Origin: a virus
Reading direction: 5' to 3' (one strand)
UHGV virus genome: UHGV-0128589
Length of the DNA: 11,077 nt
Every line of letters begins with the position of its first letter. The first letter of the stretch is position 1. A program made the position numbers and the translations under genes. Positions 482 through 11,077 of the stretch are shown in pieces. The notes below the pieces were generated by a model. It searched no databases and had not been told where the DNA came from. It saw only the letters and a list, made by a program, of their open reading frames with translations.

Positions 482-683
482 ACAATTTCAGCCTTGTAGC
501 CTTTCAAGGGTTTTGTGTGGGTACAAACATTATCGAATCGGGGTATAGCCGCAGCTGTAGCTGTATCCACATCAGTAAGTTGATGTAGGTTGACTTAGGT
601 TGAGCGAAAAATAGCGAAAAGCCTTGTGTGGCGCGGATTTCAGTCATAAAAAAACGTCCGTTGATGTCTATTGATGTTCCGAT

Positions 684-722
684 GGTGCGAAGGTGCGAAG
701 GTGCGAAGGCCGGACTCAAACC
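684..722. repeat. att-like degenerate copy of the tRNA-Leu 3-prime end (left boundary of the element), preceded by GGTGCGAA x3 tandem repeat
   Basis: ggtgcgaaggccggactcaaacc (700-722) matches tggtgccgaaggccggactcgaacc at 11024-11048 with one indel and one substitution; three tandem GGTGCGAA units at 684-707. Confidence 0.6.
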
Positions 723-772
723 ATCATGTAACACCATAAAATACAAGCAAAAAACATAAACTACACTTTAAA

Positions 773-792
773 GTGCCCCCTTTTGTGCCCCC
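773..792. repeat. GTGCCCCC direct repeat x2, candidate integrase arm-type site at the left end
   Basis: gtgccccc at 773-780 and 785-792; the same TGCCCCC(A) motif recurs beside the int start at 10862-10910. Confidence 0.4.
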
Positions 793-920
793 ACCATTTA
801 TTTGATAATTTTAAGCTCAACTAATTGGTTTATCTCGGAAAAGATAACAAATCCTATCTTCGGTTTGGATCCGTTGCACGGATCCAAATCGGAACAGAAA
901 AAAACTTTTTTTTAGGAAAA

Positions 921-1063: not shown

Positions 1064-3397
1064 TTATTTCGCTGTGGGGTCATCGCACTTCGGCAGCCAG
1101 TCGGCGTTGCTTTCTTCCCTGAGCGCAAGATTGGTCTGTATGCCCTGATTTTTACGGCGCTTCTCATAACTCAGTCCGTACTCTTTTAGCATCGCTGGCA
1201 GTCCCTTGCCGAACATGGTGAGGCTAAGAGTATTCTTGTAGCCGTGGGCCTCCATGTACGCCAGGTAGGCATGATAGAGGTAAAGTCGCGGCTGACGCGG
1301 AATGATGTTGGCATTGCCAATATACATACCCTCAGGTTCCGGCAGCGCCTCCAGATAGCCACAAAAATCAAATGTCGGGTCGGCGTCGCGCTTGATGCTG
1401 AGCGCCTCGTCGGAATTCTGCTGTGACTGGAGCAGTGTGCGCGCGGTCATCGGGTCGCTGAACTTCTGCATTAGCTGGCGCACAATGACGGCCAGCTCGC
1501 GGGCGATTTTGTTCTTAAGCTGCGGGTCGCGTTCTTCCGGGGCAATCTGCTCCGGGAAATGCAGAATCACCCGGCGACGGGAAACACCGCCGCTGCGGTC
1601 AGTAAAGCGCATCGGGTTATTGTTCACGGCCAGAATCACCGCCGGAATATGGGTGGAGTACGCATCCTTGTATTTCGGGTCTACCGATACCGCATCCCCG
1701 CCGGTGATGGCCTTGAGTCCGGCTCCGTCACCACTCCATTTTTCCTGGTCAGGCAGTCGAATCAGCGAGAAGCCAATCAGTGCGGCACGTTCACGCGGTG
1801 ATTCCAGCGTTTCGATGGTGGCCGACGTGGCGTTATCTTCCCCGGCAAGCATGGTCGCAATTTCGGCCAGAATACTTTTCCCGCTGCCGCCGGGCCCGGT
1901 CACCTCAAGAAAGAGCTGCCAGTCGTAGCGGTTCGCCAGCACCATAAACAGCGCGGCCAGAATCACATCGCGTTTTTCTGGTCTGCCACCGGCAGCACGG
2001 TCGAGCCAGCGCCAGAAATCCGGTGCATGGGTTTCCAGCGTTTCGCCCTCCACCGGCGGGGTAAAATCGACATCACAGAGTGTGCGCAGCCAGTGCGATT
2101 TATCATGCGGGTTGAATGTGCCGGTGGCGGTATCAAGTACGCCGTTGCGAAAGCCAATCAGACGCCGTGCCGGGGCGTCCTGCTGCGGAATAATCAGTTT
2201 CAGGGTCTCCACCACCGAGGCAATTTTTCCCGACGAGAACGGTGCGCGCAGACGCTGGAACAACCCGGCCACGTCGCGGGCAAAGTCCGACGGCGGAATG
2301 ATTTTCCATATCCCGGCCTCATAACGGGACAGGAGCTGGCCGTTCGCGTCCACGGCCAGCGCTTCGCCGTAATGCTCATGCACCCGCATCGCTTTTTCAC
2401 TGGTGCTCATGGCGGTAAATTCCGCCTCGCTCATGGTAGTGAAAGGACTGTCAGCCGGTGGCCGGATGGCCTCATAAATGGCTTTCCGCATCGCCTCCTC
2501 ACCTTTCTGTTCAAATGCGTCATTCCAGTCACCGAACACCGGCGGCAGGGCAACAATACCGTCACAGGCTTCTGCGGCCGCTGCGGCTTTACTCTGGCCG
2601 TCGCCGTTCAGGTCGCGGTCGGCGGCGAGGACAATCTGACAGGCCGGGTATTTCTGACGGGCAAGGCTCGCCAGAGAAAGGAGGTTTGCGGACGACAGTG
2701 CCACCATGACGGTTTCCCCGGTCAGGTGATGTACGGTGAGCGCGGTCGCATAGCCCTCCGCTATCCACAGCCGTTTTCCCGCCTGTTTTTTCCCTTCGAT
2801 GGTGTGGCACGCTCCTTTTACCGCCCCGCCTTTCAGGGTGCGTTTGAGACCCTCAGAATTGATGAGCTGAAGGTTAACCAGTGCATCGGTATTGTCATAC
2901 AGCGGGACAACCACATCACCGGCGCGGAACGTCACGCCGCCGGTTTTATGCACGGCCGTGAGCGTCAGACATTCCAGAGCGGGGAAGCCCTTGCGGGTCA
3001 GGTAGGCGTTGCCGCTGGCCGTGCGGGTTTTCTCCATCAGTCTGACGGCCAGCGTGGCCGCCGCTTTACGGTCTGCTTCGGTTTCAGCCTCTGCGGCCAC
3101 AATCACCTCCGGGGCAACCGGCGACAGGTTACCGGCGACGACATTCACCTTTTGGGCTGCCTCTGACGGATTAACGCCGAACACCTTTTCAACCAGTTTC
3201 AGGCCATCCCCTGCGCCGCACTGGTTACAGAACCACGTCCCGCGACCCTCTTTATCGTCAAACCGGAAACGGTCAGAACCGCCGCACACCGGGCAGGGCT
3301 GATGCCGGTTTTTAATGACCTTCACCCCCAGCGCCGGGAGAATGCGCGGCCAGTGGCCGCACGCCTGTTTTACGGTTTCCGTTACGTTCATTTTCAT
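1064..3397 (-). CDS. alpha: P4-type alpha protein: DNA primase / SF3 replicative helicase
   Basis: 777-aa ORF; N-terminal CxxC...CxxC zinc-binding primase region (CPVCGGSDRF...FCNQCGAG); Walker A P-loop GPGGSGKS in the C-terminal half; RBS GGGAGAA upstream; flanked by iterons, as for P4 alpha. Confidence 0.95.
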   Translation of the reverse strand: MKMNVTETVKQACGHWPRILPALGVKVIKNRHQPCPVCGGSDRFRFDDKEGRGTWFCNQCGAGDGLKLVEKVFGVNPSEAAQKVNVVAGNLSPVAPEVIVAAEAETEADRKAAATLAVRLMEKTRTASGNAYLTRKGFPALECLTLTAVHKTGGVTFRAGDVVVPLYDNTDALVNLQLINSEGLKRTLKGGAVKGACHTIEGKKQAGKRLWIAEGYATALTVHHLTGETVMVALSSANLLSLASLARQKYPACQIVLAADRDLNGDGQSKAAAAAEACDGIVALPPVFGDWNDAFEQKGEEAMRKAIYEAIRPPADSPFTTMSEAEFTAMSTSEKAMRVHEHYGEALAVDANGQLLSRYEAGIWKIIPPSDFARDVAGLFQRLRAPFSSGKIASVVETLKLIIPQQDAPARRLIGFRNGVLDTATGTFNPHDKSHWLRTLCDVDFTPPVEGETLETHAPDFWRWLDRAAGGRPEKRDVILAALFMVLANRYDWQLFLEVTGPGGSGKSILAEIATMLAGEDNATSATIETLESPRERAALIGFSLIRLPDQEKWSGDGAGLKAITGGDAVSVDPKYKDAYSTHIPAVILAVNNNPMRFTDRSGGVSRRRVILHFPEQIAPEERDPQLKNKIARELAVIVRQLMQKFSDPMTARTLLQSQQNSDEALSIKRDADPTFDFCGYLEALPEPEGMYIGNANIIPRQPRLYLYHAYLAYMEAHGYKNTLSLTMFGKGLPAMLKEYGLSYEKRRKNQGIQTNLALREESNADWLPKCDDPTAK

Positions 3398-3411: not shown

Positions 3412-3732
3412 TCAGTGCACAACAGGCGATTGCATGTGACGGGCGCAGAGTTCATCCATCACCGCAAGCCCGAGAAAGGACAGTGACGGCGCGGCTTTCA
3501 GTGGCCCGCCTTCCATTAAATCTTCCAGCAGGGCACAGGCAATCAGGCGGCCTTTTTCCTCGCCGTACTGGCGCAGATAGAAGCCTTCCAGTCCGGCAGC
3601 AATGGCGCTTTCCAGTGCATCAAGGGTGAGATGTGGATAGCGGTGCTGACGTTCGCACAGGGTCAGCCAGGCACAGGCCACGGCGCGACGATACAGCGCA
3701 GCACGCAGAACAGGGGATAATGAATTTTTCAT
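3412..3732 (-). CDS. small protein directly upstream of alpha; position matches P4 cnr (copy-number regulator), identity not established
   Basis: 106-aa ORF; its stop is 14 nt before the alpha start; its start overlaps the stop of the upstream ORF (ATGA), so likely co-transcribed. Confidence 0.65.
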
Positions 3733-3956
3733 ACATTGCCCTCCCCGGTCAGCCAGCGCTGATTGCAGCGTTCGACCACGCCGTCGAGCTGGGCGGTCAT
3801 GAGGTAAATCACGGAGGTAAGCTGTAACTGCTGCGCCGGGTCACGACGAATAGTGGCGCAGTCCTGCACCTGCATCAGTTCGCCGACGAGCTGGCCGACA
3901 TTGCGCATATGCTCCAGGCATTCGAGGTCACGGGCGGTAATGGTGGTGTGTCTCAT
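3729..3956 (-). CDS. hypothetical small protein of the left (replication) operon
   Basis: 75-aa ORF overlapping both neighbours by 4 nt (translational coupling); no recognisable motif. Confidence 0.55.
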
Positions 3957-4147
3957 GCGCGCACCTCCGCAACCGGCAGACGGCCAGCGAACGAGAGGAC
4001 GTAATCACGAACGAGGGAAAGGCGTGCGGCGTGTTCATCACCGGCAACGGTGCGGAGCATACAAATACGGGGTTTACGGTCTGCGCGACGTACAGCGGCA
4101 AACACAAAAACAAACTGCGGGTGTGACGGGGTGAGGGTCGTAGCCAT
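3953..4147 (-). CDS. Icd-like small protein (cell-division-inhibitor / P4 kil-position gene); the longer 183-aa ORF in the track is probably an artefact
   Basis: Internal start [16 protein letters not shown]... at 4147 with SD GGAGGT about 8 nt upstream (alternative ATG at 4171); N-terminus resembles proteins annotated Icd-like in P4-like prophages (from memory, unverified). Confidence 0.55.
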
Positions 4148-4350
4148 AGTGGCAACCTCCAATGTTTGCATGTGACTGCTACCACTGGAAACGCCAATTT
4201 CACTGGTGGTAGCCCAGACGGGGTTGGCGTAACCGGCAACATTGGAAACCGGCGCTTCGTGAGAAGCCCCCGCCTGAGCCACCATTACTCGAAGGATCCA
4301 AAGGTAGATAAATCTCTGGATCAAAAATGGATGCACTGAGGCATAGACAC

Positions 4351-4500: not shown

Positions 4501-4767
4501 TCATGCGTCATAACTCCGGTTGCGTTCGGCAATGCGATCCGCCATCCATGCGGTGATTTCAGACTGTGCCCACGCCACGTTTTTTCCGCCGAGGGAGATT
4601 TGTTTCGGGAATGCCTCGCGGCTGATGAGGTCGTAAATGGTCGACCGGGACAGGCCGCATAAATGCATCACTTCGGGCAGACGGATAAAGCGCTCCTGAA
4701 CGACATCAGAGACCGGCATCAGCGGGGCGGCAGGGGCAGAAGACGGGGAAGAAAAAGCGGTGTGCAT
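4501..4767 (-). CDS. AlpA/Vis-family helix-turn-helix regulator / excisionase
   Basis: 88-aa ORF with typical AlpA core [46 protein letters not shown]; SD GAGGT 7 nt upstream of the ATG at 4767; internal start at MPVSD also possible. Confidence 0.85.
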
Positions 4768-6301: not shown

Positions 6302-6868
6302 GTGACCACCCTGACATTACAGCAGGCGTTTGAAGCCTGTCAGACGAACAAAACGGCGTGGCTGAATCGTAAAGCCGAACTGGCCTCCGCAGAGCAGGAA
6401 TATCAGGAATTATTACTGGATGACAACGCACCGGGTTCCCGCAGATTACAGATGCTACGTGACCTTATCGACGTAAAAAAATGGGAAGTTAATCAGGCCG
6501 CCGGTCGCTATATCTTCTCGCATGAGGAGGTACAGCGCATCAGCATCCGTAACCGTGTGCATGATTTTATGCAGCAGAACGGCGCAGAACTGGCCGCTGC
6601 ACTGGCCCCTGAGCTGATGGGGATTAAAAACCAGCCCGCGATGATAAAAAACCGTGCGCTTGACCGTTCAGTCACTTACCTGAGAGAAGCTCTTTCCGTC
6701 TGGCTGACCGCAGGAAATGAAATTAATTATTCGGCACAGGATAACGACATTTTAACGGCCATCGGATACAGGCCTGACGCGCCCTCGCGGGATGATTATC
6801 GTGAAAAATTCACCCCTGCACAGAACATGATTTACACCCGTCGACGCGCCGAACTGGCCGCGCAGTAG
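6302..6868 (+). CDS. psu: Psu-like polarity suppression / capsid decoration protein
   Basis: 188-aa ORF with GTG start and SD AGGAG upstream; N-terminus TLTLQQAFEACQTNKTAWLNRKAELASAEQEY resembles P4 Psu as I recall it; third gene after sid and delta. Confidence 0.8.
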   Translation: MTTLTLQQAFEACQTNKTAWLNRKAELASAEQEYQELLLDDNAPGSRRLQMLRDLIDVKKWEVNQAAGRYIFSHEEVQRISIRNRVHDFMQQNGAELAAALAPELMGIKNQPAMIKNRALDRSVTYLREALSVWLTAGNEINYSAQDNDILTAIGYRPDAPSRDDYREKFTPAQNMIYTRRRAELAAQ

Positions 6869-7238: not shown

Positions 7239-7619
7239 ATGCTAAATCATATTTATGGAATTGTTGGTATAGTTGGCACATTAGTTACGATTGTGACGAG
7301 TTACATCAGAAATCAAGAATTGTCGCAATGGTTCCTTGTATGTTCTGGTTGGCTTACGGCTCTATTGATAGGTTGGTTCACGCATAGAACTATTAAAATT
7401 CTAAGCAAAGATCACAAAGAAACCATCATTAGTAATGATGGTATAAAGCAAACGCTTATAGAGCGGAATGAAACATTAACCACACAACTTACGCATGCAT
7501 TAGAACAGAAAGAAAAAATGGAAGGAATCGCGGCTTATTTAGCAACTCAGAACCCACAAATTAACGCCATGCCTAGAGCCATCGCGCGACAAGAAAATAC
7601 TGAGCTAGGAGGTAATTAA
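7239..7619 (+). CDS. small two-transmembrane-helix protein with C-terminal charged/helical tail; first gene of the accessory operon
   Basis: 126-aa ORF; hydrophobic segments IYGIVGIVGTLVTIVTSYI and WFLVCSGWLTALLIGWF; RBS AAGAGAG 7 nt upstream; AT-rich codon usage unlike the core genes. Confidence 0.7.
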   Translation: MLNHIYGIVGIVGTLVTIVTSYIRNQELSQWFLVCSGWLTALLIGWFTHRTIKILSKDHKETIISNDGIKQTLIERNETLTTQLTHALEQKEKMEGIAAYLATQNPQINAMPRAIARQENTELGGN

Positions 7620-7620
7620 G

Positions 7621-8685
7621 ATGAAAGTAAATTTTGATAGTTATTCATATTATCCTGCATTAAGAACTCGTGCAGCTGAAATACTTGGCTTGAGTAAGCT
7701 TGCTCATGATAAGAAAGAGAAAGTACTTCCACTTATAACCTTAGGGAAATGGCCCCGCTCAGATGAAATTCAAGTTTCTCTTGATAAGAGTCTGGAAGCA
7801 ATGAATAACTTGCCTTTTATTCTGGACGTTACTCAAGAGAACAAGCATCATTGCGCATCAAGCTTTGATCTTCTATCTTCCGAAAATAATTTTTCAAACT
7901 GGATAGCTTTCTGCTCTAAGAATGAGAATATTATCCCCGTAGTTCAAATGCCTGAATCTGCAAGATTAAGGGATATAGTACAGCAAGCAAGAATACTTGA
8001 AGAAAATAAAGGTTCCATTGCATTTCGCATAAAGAACCTTAACACTGATATAAATAAAACAATAGCATCACTTGTGTCTCTCGACTCCCCTGAAAATGCG
8101 GTTATATTCATAGACTTGGGTTACATTCGCGGACATGTCTCAGCAATGACGTCTGCTGCCATAAGTGCAATCAACCAAATAAGGACAGAAATTCCTGAAG
8201 CTATAATTAGTGTACTGTCGACTAGTTTCCCAAGTTCGGTCGCAAACTTTGCAGGAGAAAATGGTCAATCTGGTTATATTGACATTATGGAAAGAGAATT
8301 CCACCAAACTATTGGTGGTCGAGGAGTATCTATATACGGAGATCATAGTTCAATTCACTCTGTTGTATATGATGATGTTGGTGGACGTTATGTCCCAAGA
8401 ATTGACATTGCATTAGATGATGCTTGGTTTTTTGAGAGAAGACCAGGACTTGATAGTAAAGGCTATATAGAAGCAGCAAGAGCGATTCTTAAAAGATACC
8501 CTAATTATCTTGAAGAAGAATCCTGGGGTGCGCTGATGATTAAAAACGCTGCATCAGGCGATATTGCTGGTATGGGGAGTCCCGCTAAATGGATTTCTGT
8601 GCGCGTGAACCTTCATATAACAAAGCAAATTGAGCTATCAGAAGCACTTAAAACAGATTACGATCCTGAAGAGGATTTCTTCTAA
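7621..8685 (+). CDS. uncharacterised 354-aa protein, second gene of the accessory operon; function unknown
   Basis: Long ORF starting 1 nt after the upstream stop; strong SD AGGAGGT 9 nt upstream, embedded in the last codons of the upstream gene; no Walker or other catalytic motif recognisable by eye. Confidence 0.8.
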   Translation: MKVNFDSYSYYPALRTRAAEILGLSKLAHDKKEKVLPLITLGKWPRSDEIQVSLDKSLEAMNNLPFILDVTQENKHHCASSFDLLSSENNFSNWIAFCSKNENIIPVVQMPESARLRDIVQQARILEENKGSIAFRIKNLNTDINKTIASLVSLDSPENAVIFIDLGYIRGHVSAMTSAAISAINQIRTEIPEAIISVLSTSFPSSVANFAGENGQSGYIDIMEREFHQTIGGRGVSIYGDHSSIHSVVYDDVGGRYVPRIDIALDDAWFFERRPGLDSKGYIEAARAILKRYPNYLEEESWGALMIKNAASGDIAGMGSPAKWISVRVNLHITKQIELSEALKTDYDPEEDFF

Positions 8686-8710
8686 AAAATAAGGGAGGGC
8701 AGCCTCCCTT
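8683..8710 (-). terminator. terminator hairpin between the convergent accessory genes (strongest for the minus-strand gene)
   Basis: aagggagg-gcag-cctccctt perfect 8-bp stem; on the minus strand it is followed by ATTTTTT. Confidence 0.55.
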
Positions 8711-9503
8711 ATCGCACGACCCTTTTCAAAACTTTGATGGGAGTGATACTCCCAACCTCTCCGTGCTTTCTCATAAACCCCTCAATATCAACTGTATAAA
8801 AATCATCTAATTTTTCATCAGTATTATCTTCGAAATCTTTAAAGTGATTATGTTCCCGTCTCTTTTTTGATTTACTTAACAAAGTCAAATCGTTAGCATT
8901 CGATAATTCGCTACCTGCTAATTTCTTCAAGTAATCATCAGAAGTTTCTTTATAGCGTTGCTTAATTGCTTTAAGCGCAAAGTCTCTAATTCTAGATAGG
9001 GGAATTTGTTCAGCTATACGCTCTAAAGCCTCACGACCAGACTCGAGTAAAAACTTTTTCCCATTTTCAACAAGAAGTAATTGCAACTCTTTTTTCAGTA
9101 AGAAATTAATATAAACCTTCTTATTACCGAGTACTGCCGTACGCCCACGCTGAACTATTTTAAAACGAATGCCTTTACTAGTATTTATGTATTCAATAAC
9201 ACCAACATCTGATGTTACTTTCTTCGCAATTTCATAAGTAAATTTTGGGGCACAAACAACAGTTACCTTTTCAAAACGAGATGTAAAGGTTTCTAACTGA
9301 CCATCTAATCTTTTAAGAGAGTCAAAATCACTTTTTATTTCAAAAGCTTGCAAGTGTCCATTCGCAACGGCCAGATCAGCGCGGCGACTCCAATTCGCTA
9401 CAACCATTTCATTAATAATGGTTGCGTTCTCTAACAAGCCTTTTTTAAAAAGCCAGTCAATAAATGCGACTTTTACATCTTGCTCTCTTAATAAAAATGA
9501 CAT
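8709..9503 (-). CDS. stand-alone protein with N-terminal PD-(D/E)xK nuclease-like domain and charged helical C-terminal region
   Basis: 264-aa ORF; motif order E7 ... RADLAV (D42) ... AFEIKSD (E54-x-K56) fits the PD-(D/E)xK core; own extended -10 promoter and own terminator; very AT-rich. Confidence 0.8.
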   Translation of the reverse strand: MSFLLREQDVKVAFIDWLFKKGLLENATIINEMVVANWSRRADLAVANGHLQAFEIKSDFDSLKRLDGQLETFTSRFEKVTVVCAPKFTYEIAKKVTSDVGVIEYINTSKGIRFKIVQRGRTAVLGNKKVYINFLLKKELQLLLVENGKKFLLESGREALERIAEQIPLSRIRDFALKAIKQRYKETSDDYLKKLAGSELSNANDLTLLSKSKKRREHNHFKDFEDNTDEKLDDFYTVDIEGFMRKHGEVGSITPIKVLKRVVR

Positions 9504-9594: not shown

Positions 9595-10872
9595 CTAGAT
9601 GTCATTTATTTTACTCCCACAGTCATACGGTGATATATACTCCTTATTATTTAGATCTAAATAATCAGCCCACCACTGAACCATTTTGCGCCTTTCATCT
9701 AAATGTTCTGATGTATGAATATAAGCAGCCCTAACGCCATTACGTTCTGTGTGACTCAACTGACGTTCTATAGCGTCATCGCTCCATAATCCTGACTCAC
9801 CCAGCGCACCACGGGCCATCGTTCTAAATCCATGCCCGCAAACTTCAGTTTTCGTGTCATAGCCCATCGCACGCAATGCGCTGTTTACCGTGTTTTCACT
9901 CATAACCTTAGTTGCGTCATGATCCCCCGGGAACAGCAGCTCTTTATCACCACTAATTTGCTTGAGCTGCTCTAATAAAACCATCGCCTGCCGACTGAGA
10001 GGAACAATATGCTCCTCTTTCATTTTCATGCCACGATACGAGTAACGCACGCCCTTAATTTCTTCTCGCTTTGCAGGTATACGCCAAAGAGATTTATCGA
10101 AGTCGAACTCATCCCAACGCGCGAAACGCAACTCACTGGAACGCACAAAAGTTAGTAAGGAAAGCTCAACCGCGATCCGTGTCATTACACGGCCACGATA
10201 TGCAGCAAGACGTGCAAGAAACTCAGGGAACCGGCTAGAGGGTAAAGCGGGGTAATGTCGCGCTTTGGTTGTCGATAGCGCACCGGCCATATCACTGGCT
10301 GGATTTGAGTCGATGTAATCGTTCTGTACTGCATAACGCATGATAGCCGTGACACGCTGCTGAAGACGCTGTGCGACGTCATGCTTACCACTTGCATCAA
10401 CTTTTTTAATCGGGGCTAACAGGTGGCTAGTCTTGAGCTGGCGAATGTCGGACGAACCAATATGAGGGAAGATATAAAGCTCAAGATAGCGAAGAACGCG
10501 CGATCGATGGTCTTCACTCCAGCGCTTGTTACTGGCGTGCCATTCACGAGCAATGGTTTCGAAAGTATATGCCCCCGAATTCTCGGCCTGAGCTTCTTTC
10601 TGTTCGGCTTTTGGGTCAATGCCCTGCACTAGCAGCTTTTTAGCTTCATCGCGCTTTGCTCTTGCCTGAGCAAGCGTCACAGTAGGCCAAACACCAAAAG
10701 CGAGGCGATCCTCTTTTTTGTCTGAGGGGCGTCTGTATTTCATGCGCCAGTATTTAGAACCCTTAGCCGAAATCTCGAGATACAAACCGCCGCCATCGGC
10801 CATTTTGTAGGTTTTTTCTTTTGGCTTTGCGGTCTCGACCTGTCTGGCGTTGAGCTTCATTTGGGGGCACAT
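9595..10872 (-). CDS. int: P4-type tyrosine integrase / site-specific recombinase
   Basis: 425-aa ORF; N-terminus with the ...KTYKMADGGGLYLEI... motif typical of P4-family integrases; C-terminal HGFRTMARG and downstream tyrosine (VRAAYIH); about 150 bp from the tRNA 3-prime end. Start may be the ATG at 10860 (MKLNARQ). Confidence 0.95.
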   Translation of the reverse strand: MCPQMKLNARQVETAKPKEKTYKMADGGGLYLEISAKGSKYWRMKYRRPSDKKEDRLAFGVWPTVTLAQARAKRDEAKKLLVQGIDPKAEQKEAQAENSGAYTFETIAREWHASNKRWSEDHRSRVLRYLELYIFPHIGSSDIRQLKTSHLLAPIKKVDASGKHDVAQRLQQRVTAIMRYAVQNDYIDSNPASDMAGALSTTKARHYPALPSSRFPEFLARLAAYRGRVMTRIAVELSLLTFVRSSELRFARWDEFDFDKSLWRIPAKREEIKGVRYSYRGMKMKEEHIVPLSRQAMVLLEQLKQISGDKELLFPGDHDATKVMSENTVNSALRAMGYDTKTEVCGHGFRTMARGALGESGLWSDDAIERQLSHTERNGVRAAYIHTSEHLDERRKMVQWWADYLDLNNKEYISPYDCGSKINDI

Positions 10873-10910
10873 TTCTAATCGAAGTTAAGATGCCCCCAAT
10901 TATGCCCCCA
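10862..10910. repeat. TGCCCCCA repeats (two direct, one inverted) at the int start, candidate integrase-binding or autoregulatory sites
   Basis: tgggggca at 10862-10869 (inverted, overlapping the first int codons); tgccccca at 10891-10898 and 10903-10910. Confidence 0.4.
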
Positions 10911-11023
10911 ATGACATCAGGATTTCAACGGACAACCTCGGACGACTCAGGACGTAAAAATCGCTGCAAGCATTGATTTTTAAGGGATAATTGGACTTTC
11001 TCGGATGGTCTTGGAAGTACTTA

Positions 11024-11077
11024 TGGTGCCGAAGGCCGGACTCGAACCGGCACGTATTTCTACGGTTGATTTTGAAT
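11024..11077 (-). tRNA. leuX: tRNA-Leu(CAA), leuX-type, 3-prime portion only (truncated by the window edge)
   Basis: Reverse complement reads ATTCAAAATCAACCGTAGAAATACGTGCCGGTTCGAGTCCGGCCTTCGGCACCA: anticodon loop with CAA, variable arm, T-arm GGTTCGAGTCC and acceptor end with CCA; matches E. coli leuX as I recall it. Confidence 0.85.

Follow-up and report, generated by a model that had tools for sequence, protein, structure and literature searches.

What is the short motif TGCCCCC, which recurs near both ends of this DNA, and is it read by the integrase encoded beside it? The window, which is the whole stretch of 11,077 bases that was analyzed (UHGV virus genome UHGV-0128589), contains six exact copies by exact match scan, at 774-780, 786-792, 10570-10576, 10891-10897 and 10903-10909 on the plus strand and at 10863-10869 on the minus strand. 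Only 1.35 copies would be expected, and none of 200 dinucleotide-preserving shuffles reached six. An earlier note had placed three copies at the int start (10862-10910) and two more at 773-792, just inside the left att, and exact matching showed the coordinates of all five to be correct; its list had missed the sixth copy, at 10570-10576 within the int open reading frame. A longer form of the motif, TGCCCCCAA, has three exact occurrences in the window, every one of them at the int start. The repeat unit, WWRTGCCCCCWW, spans ~12 bp, and on each arm the direct copies follow an exact 12-bp period. The repeats and their counterparts in phage P4 are as follows.

771-794, plus strand: two int-distal direct repeats, AAGTGCCCCCTT and TTGTGCCCCCAC, putative arm sites; P4 counterpart 4151-4174.
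10567-10578, plus strand: sixth copy, ATATGCCCCCGA, within int; P4 counterpart 3621-3632.
10861-10872, minus strand: inverted repeat, ATGTGCCCCCAA, putative arm site; homologous to the P4 repeat at X51522 3915-3926.
10888-10899, plus strand: int-proximal direct repeat, AGATGCCCCCAA, putative arm site; P4 counterpart 3942-3953.
10900-10911, plus strand: second direct repeat, TTATGCCCCCAA, 12 bp from the first, putative arm site; P4 counterpart 3954-3965.

The int-distal pair is located ~55 nt inward of the left core copy. Overall, the five end-proximal repeats lie ~55-135 bp inside the core copies, and they flank, on both arms, a core that is duplicated at the element ends. When attP is reassembled from the two ends, the int-side direct sites fall ~115-135 bp from the core and the direct sites of the other side ~55-75 bp from it.

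The element that these repeats bound is a P4-like satellite prophage inserted in leuX, with a full set of arm sites. The features that define it are listed here.

683-717, minus strand: left (int-distal) core copy, a degenerate tRNA 3' end.
1064-3397, minus strand: primase/helicase, 777 aa.
4501-4767, minus strand: AlpA/Vis-family gene (Pfam Phage_AlpA, E = 3e-20), candidate for the recombination directionality factor (RDF) of the element.
6302-6868: Psu.
9595-10860, minus strand: int, P4-type tyrosine integrase, 421 aa from the conserved MKLNARQ start.
11024-11043, minus strand: int-side core site, TGGTGCCGAAGGCCGGACTC, identical to the annotated 20-bp P4 attP core.

The int-side core consists of the 3' end of leuX, a tRNA-Leu gene that the window end truncates; because of this truncation ARAGORN found no tRNA on the window, and leuX was identified instead by alignment to E. 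coli genomes, in which a tRNA-Leu is annotated at the same place. The left core copy contains GGTGCGAA three times in tandem (684-707) followed by GGCCGGACTC, and it is one C short of the tRNA and P4 cores (GGTGCGAAGG versus GGTGCCGAAGG). The GGTGCGAA triplication may impair excision and, taken with the absent C, it indicates that this prophage may have lost the ability to excise, whatever the state of its arm sites. Other leuX elements (L008-L011 and L092) lack the same C in their far core copies, as do the thrW elements L093 and L094 (TGGTGCGATAATAGGA versus TGGTGCCGATAATAGG).

The DNA around the left end and the cargo region have features of their own. The segment to the left of the left att (500-680) is homologous to the promoter/arm region of a different P4-family integrase, which in L008 is a pseudogene preceded by an inverted site, GTGGGTAC, and two direct repeats of TACCCGCA; the window retains degenerate versions of these repeats and has no copy of that integrase gene, and 500-680 looks like the remnant of a second island that stood in tandem at leuX. 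A near-perfect palindrome, GTTTGGATCCGTTGCACGGATCCAAA, at 865-890, lies between the int-distal repeats and crr-like GTGAACAG repeats. It is kept in P4 and in L008-L011 despite ~65% identity of the surrounding DNA and is unannotated in the P4 record. The cargo between psu and int (7239-9503) comprises a 126-aa ORF, a homologue of Beta_protein (PF14350) at 7621-8685 and a minus-strand 264-aa ORF; neither the 126-aa nor the 264-aa ORF gave a Pfam match. In two other P4-like satellites of E. coli, L092 (leuX; 38174-40094) and L093 (thrW; 38282-40169), a retron St85 reverse transcriptase and effector are found at the int-distal end, adjoining the arm repeats.

The identity of the repeats emerged from comparison with P4. 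A BLAST search against phage records revealed phage P4, with 90% identity over int and its upstream region. The P4 record X51522 carries six features named "attP arm sequence repeat", at 3621, 3915, 3942, 3954, 4151 and 4163, and a 20-bp "attP core" at 4078-4097, and the six window copies correspond one-to-one to these six repeats, in the same order and orientation. The int-side arm (10858-11048) is 93.7% identical to that of P4. The int-distal arm is ~65% identical and includes a block, TGCCCCCTTTTGTGCCCCCA, that matches at 20 of 20 positions. Judged by their sequence and arrangement, the TGCCCCC repeats are a rediscovery of the P4 attP arm repeats, already annotated and here found in a prophage. 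For P4, the arm sites, their likely role and the autoregulation of int have been on record for decades, with annotation in GenBank, and little of the biology is new. The arm sequence repeats of P4 attP were reportedly described by Pierson and Kahn in 1987.

The protein adjoining the repeats has the architecture that such sites call for. Pfam profiles identify an Arm-DNA-bind_3 domain at residues 3-90 (E = 7.8e-27), followed by Phage_int_M and Phage_integrase domains; the integrase (Int) thus belongs to the heterobivalent type, its arm-binding domain being N-terminal. Over its first 227 residues it shares 97% identity with P4 Int. Its last ~20 residues diverge from P4 Int, and the window protein is 15 residues shorter (int 3' end, 9595-9680), which points to a recombination junction at a variable region of P4-like satellites.

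The position of the inverted repeat bears on where Int begins. The longest int ORF starts at ATG 10872 (MCPQMKLNARQ...), the codon that is also used by the old P4 record, and it is only with this upstream start that the inverted repeat makes up codons 1-4. With the conserved ATG at 10860, the repeat lies immediately 5' of the start. The earlier statement that the inverted copy overlaps the first int codons is thus correct for a start at 10872 and incorrect for one at 10860, where the copy is directly upstream. We compared 84 distinct relatives for an upstream ATG internal to the motif. It lies 12 nt upstream, in frame, in 21 of them, 13 nt away in 32 (with a further 7 having TTG at the same spacing) and 14 nt away in 13; with such varying spacing, the motif-internal ATG is usually out of frame. 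The Pfam arm-domain profile begins at residue 3 of the MKLNARQ protein, and RefSeq annotation in E. coli uses the MKLNARQ start. These comparisons support the MKLNARQ ATG (10860) as the only universally conserved int start, rather than the upstream ATG of the old P4 record. The earlier note had also preferred 10860, and its choice is upheld by the 84 relatives, the profile start and RefSeq, but not by the argument it had offered, namely that the inverted copy overlaps the int start. In the P4-type subgroup the in-frame upstream ATG exists and may be used as well; Piazzolla et al. are said to have found that Int is translated from two start codons in P4. No Shine-Dalgarno sequence was found upstream of either ATG (10872 or 10860).

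The region that contains the int-side repeats is common in E. coli: at least 80% of 10780-11077 (int start to leuX) is present in 919 of 5,426 complete E. coli genomes. To ascertain how the repeats vary, we compared 80 related loci spanning over 20 Enterobacterales genera, among them Citrobacter, Klebsiella, Serratia, Erwinia, Pantoea, Dickeya, Pectobacterium, Xenorhabdus and Photorhabdus, whose Int N-termini are 73-99% identical. The layout is kept across these loci: an inverted copy at the int ATG, present in nearly all of them, then a gap of ~21 nt and two direct copies. Every relative with two direct copies (53 of 53) keeps the 12-bp period, and in 49 of 58 exactly 21 nt separate the direct copies from the inverted one. 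In an alignment of 80 distinct sequences, the motif columns are at least 0.9 identical to the window, compared with 0.3-0.6 in most of the flanking intergenic columns. Moreover, the copies vary in concert: of 60 distinct sequences, 46 have C/G runs of one length at all three sites (31 with 5/5/5 and 15 with 4/4/4).

More distant integrases show the same joint behavior. Locus L003 (leuX, E. coli, Int 77% identical) has an inverted TGTGCCCCCAAAA at the ATG, followed by ATGCCCCCGATT and ATGCCCCCAAAA, and L005 (thrW, Int 45% identical) has TGTGCCCCCAATG, ATGCCCCTGATT and GTGCCCCCAACC. In L006 (thrW, E. coli, Int 44% identical) all three int-side copies read TACCCCC, having changed jointly. A TACCCCC pair also lies 55 nt from the thrW core copy of L094, 10 kb from an int of the TACCCCC type, and its orientation is opposite to that expected, which shows that this island has been rearranged and makes L094 a partly informative, imperfect comparison of the two arms. 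In remnants of neighboring, unrelated P4-family integrases the layout recurs with other motifs, TATACTCA and TACCCGCA. That the same geometry occurs with other motifs, and that copies change jointly, argues that the geometry is a family trait and that the motif follows the integrase. Such tracking is the behavior expected of sites that would be read by an Int arm-binding domain. A lack of conservation of the motif at the ends of related elements had been named by the earlier note as a result that would refute its proposal; that comparison has now been run, and both motif and geometry are conserved and co-varying.

On the int-distal arm, conservation rests on P4 and seven E. coli loci. P4, L008-L011, L092 (leuX, TTGTGCCCCATTTTGTGCCCCCAAC) and L093 (thrW, TAATGCCCCCAAATATGCCCCCC) all have the pair ~55-60 nt inward of the distal core, and this holds for elements with Int at 77% and 45% identity. 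The number of int-side direct copies differs among relatives: there are three rather than two in L025 (1441-1471), L023, L027 and L028, and one or none in L019, L036, L051 and L089, indicating that arm-site number varies within the family. The spacer between the inverted and direct copies (10873-10889) contains ATCGAA (TTCGAT on the int strand), which is strongly conserved in the 80 relatives, and A(T/C)CGAA is found at the same place upstream of unrelated P4-family integrases with other arm motifs (L005, L006, L008 and L009). The inverted copy, the 21-nt gap and the two direct copies with their 12-bp period form a dependable signature, which could be used to locate the arm sites, and to infer the arm-site specificity, of other P4-family integrases in genomic islands.

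The sixth copy behaves differently. The copy at 10570 falls on codons for Ser-Gly-Ala-Tyr, in the linker just after the arm-binding domain, and relatives with the same amino acids commonly have the synonymous GGC, GGT or GGA before GCA. This synonymous drift gives little sign of selection at the DNA level. Judging from these codons, it is doubtful that the 10570 copy is a functional arm site, even though its counterpart is annotated as one in P4.

The int-side repeats coincide with a predicted promoter. A consensus scan of the int strand found one sigma-70-like promoter, for which the match is to consensus only and the start site is predicted.

10899-10928, minus strand: Pint-like sigma-70 promoter, TTGAAA-18 nt-CATAAT, 10 of 12 consensus matches.

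The -10 hexamer (10904-10899) lies at the junction of the two direct repeats, and the inverted repeat is ~25 nt downstream. The repeat at 10900-10911 overlaps the -10 hexamer and the promoter spacer, while that at 10888-10899 overlies the predicted Pint transcription start region. The P4 record X05947 gives these two hexamers as its int promoter, and the -35 block is conserved among the 80 distinct sequences of relatives. Two papers that cite Piazzolla 2006 (PMC7286903 and PMC2951348) state that in P4 the int promoter is repressed by Int itself, with one specifying direct DNA binding near the transcription start, and that Vis also represses the Pint of P4. An attL that overlaps the integrase promoter, giving negative autoregulation, is a widespread arrangement (Panis et al. 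2010, PMC2951348). In the window, the direct sites bracket the -10 and start region of Pint, and Int occupancy would therefore be predicted to repress int. The earlier note had suggested that the inverted copy may mediate int autoregulation. Autoregulation itself agrees with the P4 reports and with the promoter overlap, but a likelier operator than the inverted copy alone is the direct pair flanking the -10, with the inverted copy contributing.

Taken together, the homology to the P4 repeats, the domains found in Int, the way in which the sites are conserved and co-vary, and their overlap with the promoter consensus, all established here, make it very probable that the TGCCCCC 12-mers are the arm-type sites to which the P4-type integrase of 9595-10860 binds. 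This agrees with the proposal of the earlier note that arm-type integrase sites lie at both ends, for which the P4-repeat homology, the arm-binding domain and the conserved, co-varying sites provide the support. The mechanism that we propose draws on the general behavior of heterobivalent tyrosine recombinases and on the P4 literature. The N-terminal Arm-DNA-bind_3 domain of Int would bind the arm 12-mers, physical binding that we infer for the window element, with the catalytic domain on the core at the tRNA 3' end. Bridging of arm and core would then assemble the intasome for integration and, with Vis and IHF, the same intasome would serve for excision. Int on the int-side sites would also block RNA polymerase at Pint, resulting in negative autoregulation; the repression of Pint by Int is taken from the P4 literature.

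Of the other explanations, the one that survives best places the function of the int-side copies in RNA. The inverted copy and the proximal direct copy could pair as a GGGGGCAU/AUGUGCCCCC hairpin just 5' of the start codon, and such a hairpin, in the int leader or in leuX read-through transcripts, would control translation, termination or mRNA stability, perhaps with an RNA-binding Vis. The 55-nt stretch folds at -17.4 kcal/mol (z = -2.8), none of 200 shuffles folding as well, and the lack of a Shine-Dalgarno sequence upstream of both ATGs would be compatible with such control, as would the suggestion by the P4 authors, relayed in a citing paper, that Vis binds int mRNA. Any inverted pair of protein sites gives a hairpin, however, so the fold has no independent weight. 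The predicted -10 (10904-10899) moreover puts the transcription start inside the 5' arm, so that Pint transcripts would be without most of the stem, and neither the second direct copy, nor the 12-bp period, nor the copies on the other arm, which are not co-transcribed with int, are explained. As the main role of the repeats the hairpin was rejected on these grounds, and we consider it improbable. A dual use of the same 12-mers, as DNA sites for Int and as an RNA hairpin that, with Vis, would gate int translation or premature termination, the latter having been described for P4, has a similarly small chance of being right.

Less probable still, and very unlikely in our estimate, is that the repeats are bound not by Int but by some other protein, for instance Vis (the excisionase) or a host factor. 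Direct repeats about one helical turn apart are typical of RDF sites, according to PMC7498355, and Vis is reported to repress Pint as well. The TGCCCCC motif, however, is present on both arms and in both orientations, unlike typical RDF sites, which are expected on one arm and in one orientation, and on this basis TGCCCCC was rejected as a Vis/RDF site. In addition, the motif variant tracks the integrase lineage across element types and tRNA targets, and the record of P4 names these repeats arm repeats. A better candidate for Vis is a separate set of repeats located between the arm repeats and the core.

10930-10953, plus strand: three GGAC repeats with an exact 10-bp period, 1 match against 0 expected; candidate excisionase (Vis) sites.

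The three-GGAC pattern with exact 10-bp spacing is found in 22 of 94 loci, and the GTCC blocks are conserved among the 80 distinct sequences. A second conserved block, GGACTTTCTCGGATGGTC, lies closer to the core, at ~10993-11012; together, the GGAC repeats and this block resemble the two blocks of TorI (RDF) sites of KplE1 and are candidate Vis sites.

Chance or compositional clustering without function is effectively refuted and was rejected, for although the motif is just 7 nt long and the 10570 copy sits on a Gly-Ala codon pair that drifts synonymously in relatives, the shuffles did not reproduce the copy number, and position, spacing and sequence are kept across more than 20 genera while the neighboring DNA diverges.

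The reading of the TGCCCCC repeats as integrase arm sites places the window element closest to P4. The internal site and the three located upstream on the int side have the same sequences as in P4; the int-distal pair comprises one identical site and one with a single flanking-base difference, and the 20-bp leuX core and the Pint hexamers are common to both. Unlike in the P4 attP record, integration has distributed the window sites over the two ends of the prophage. The left core, with its GGTGCGAA triplication and one C fewer, the Int C-terminus and the cargo genes also differ from P4.

The Int protein of phage lambda, whose arm-type sites are P1, P2 and P'1-P'3, is a heterobivalent tyrosine recombinase as well. 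The shared logic is an N-terminal arm-binding domain combined with sites of mixed orientation that recur on either arm, ~60-130 bp from the core. The window element differs from lambda in its motif and in its arm-binding domain, which is from another family (Arm-DNA-bind_3), and its int, read in the direction leading away from att, has a promoter of its own within the arm in place of PI/PL.

A third parallel is the IntS/TorI system of KplE1 (CPS-53), in which the integrase promoter is within an att arm and arm-type sites lie over the -10 and start region (PMC2951348). The KplE1 integrase is negatively autoregulated, and its RDF site blocks are located between the arm sites and the core, an arrangement that we liken to that of the window (PMC2951348). 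KplE1 and the window element differ in integrase subfamily, motif and tRNA target, which in KplE1 is argW. P4 differs from KplE1 in that its RDF, Vis, has been proposed to act partly on RNA.
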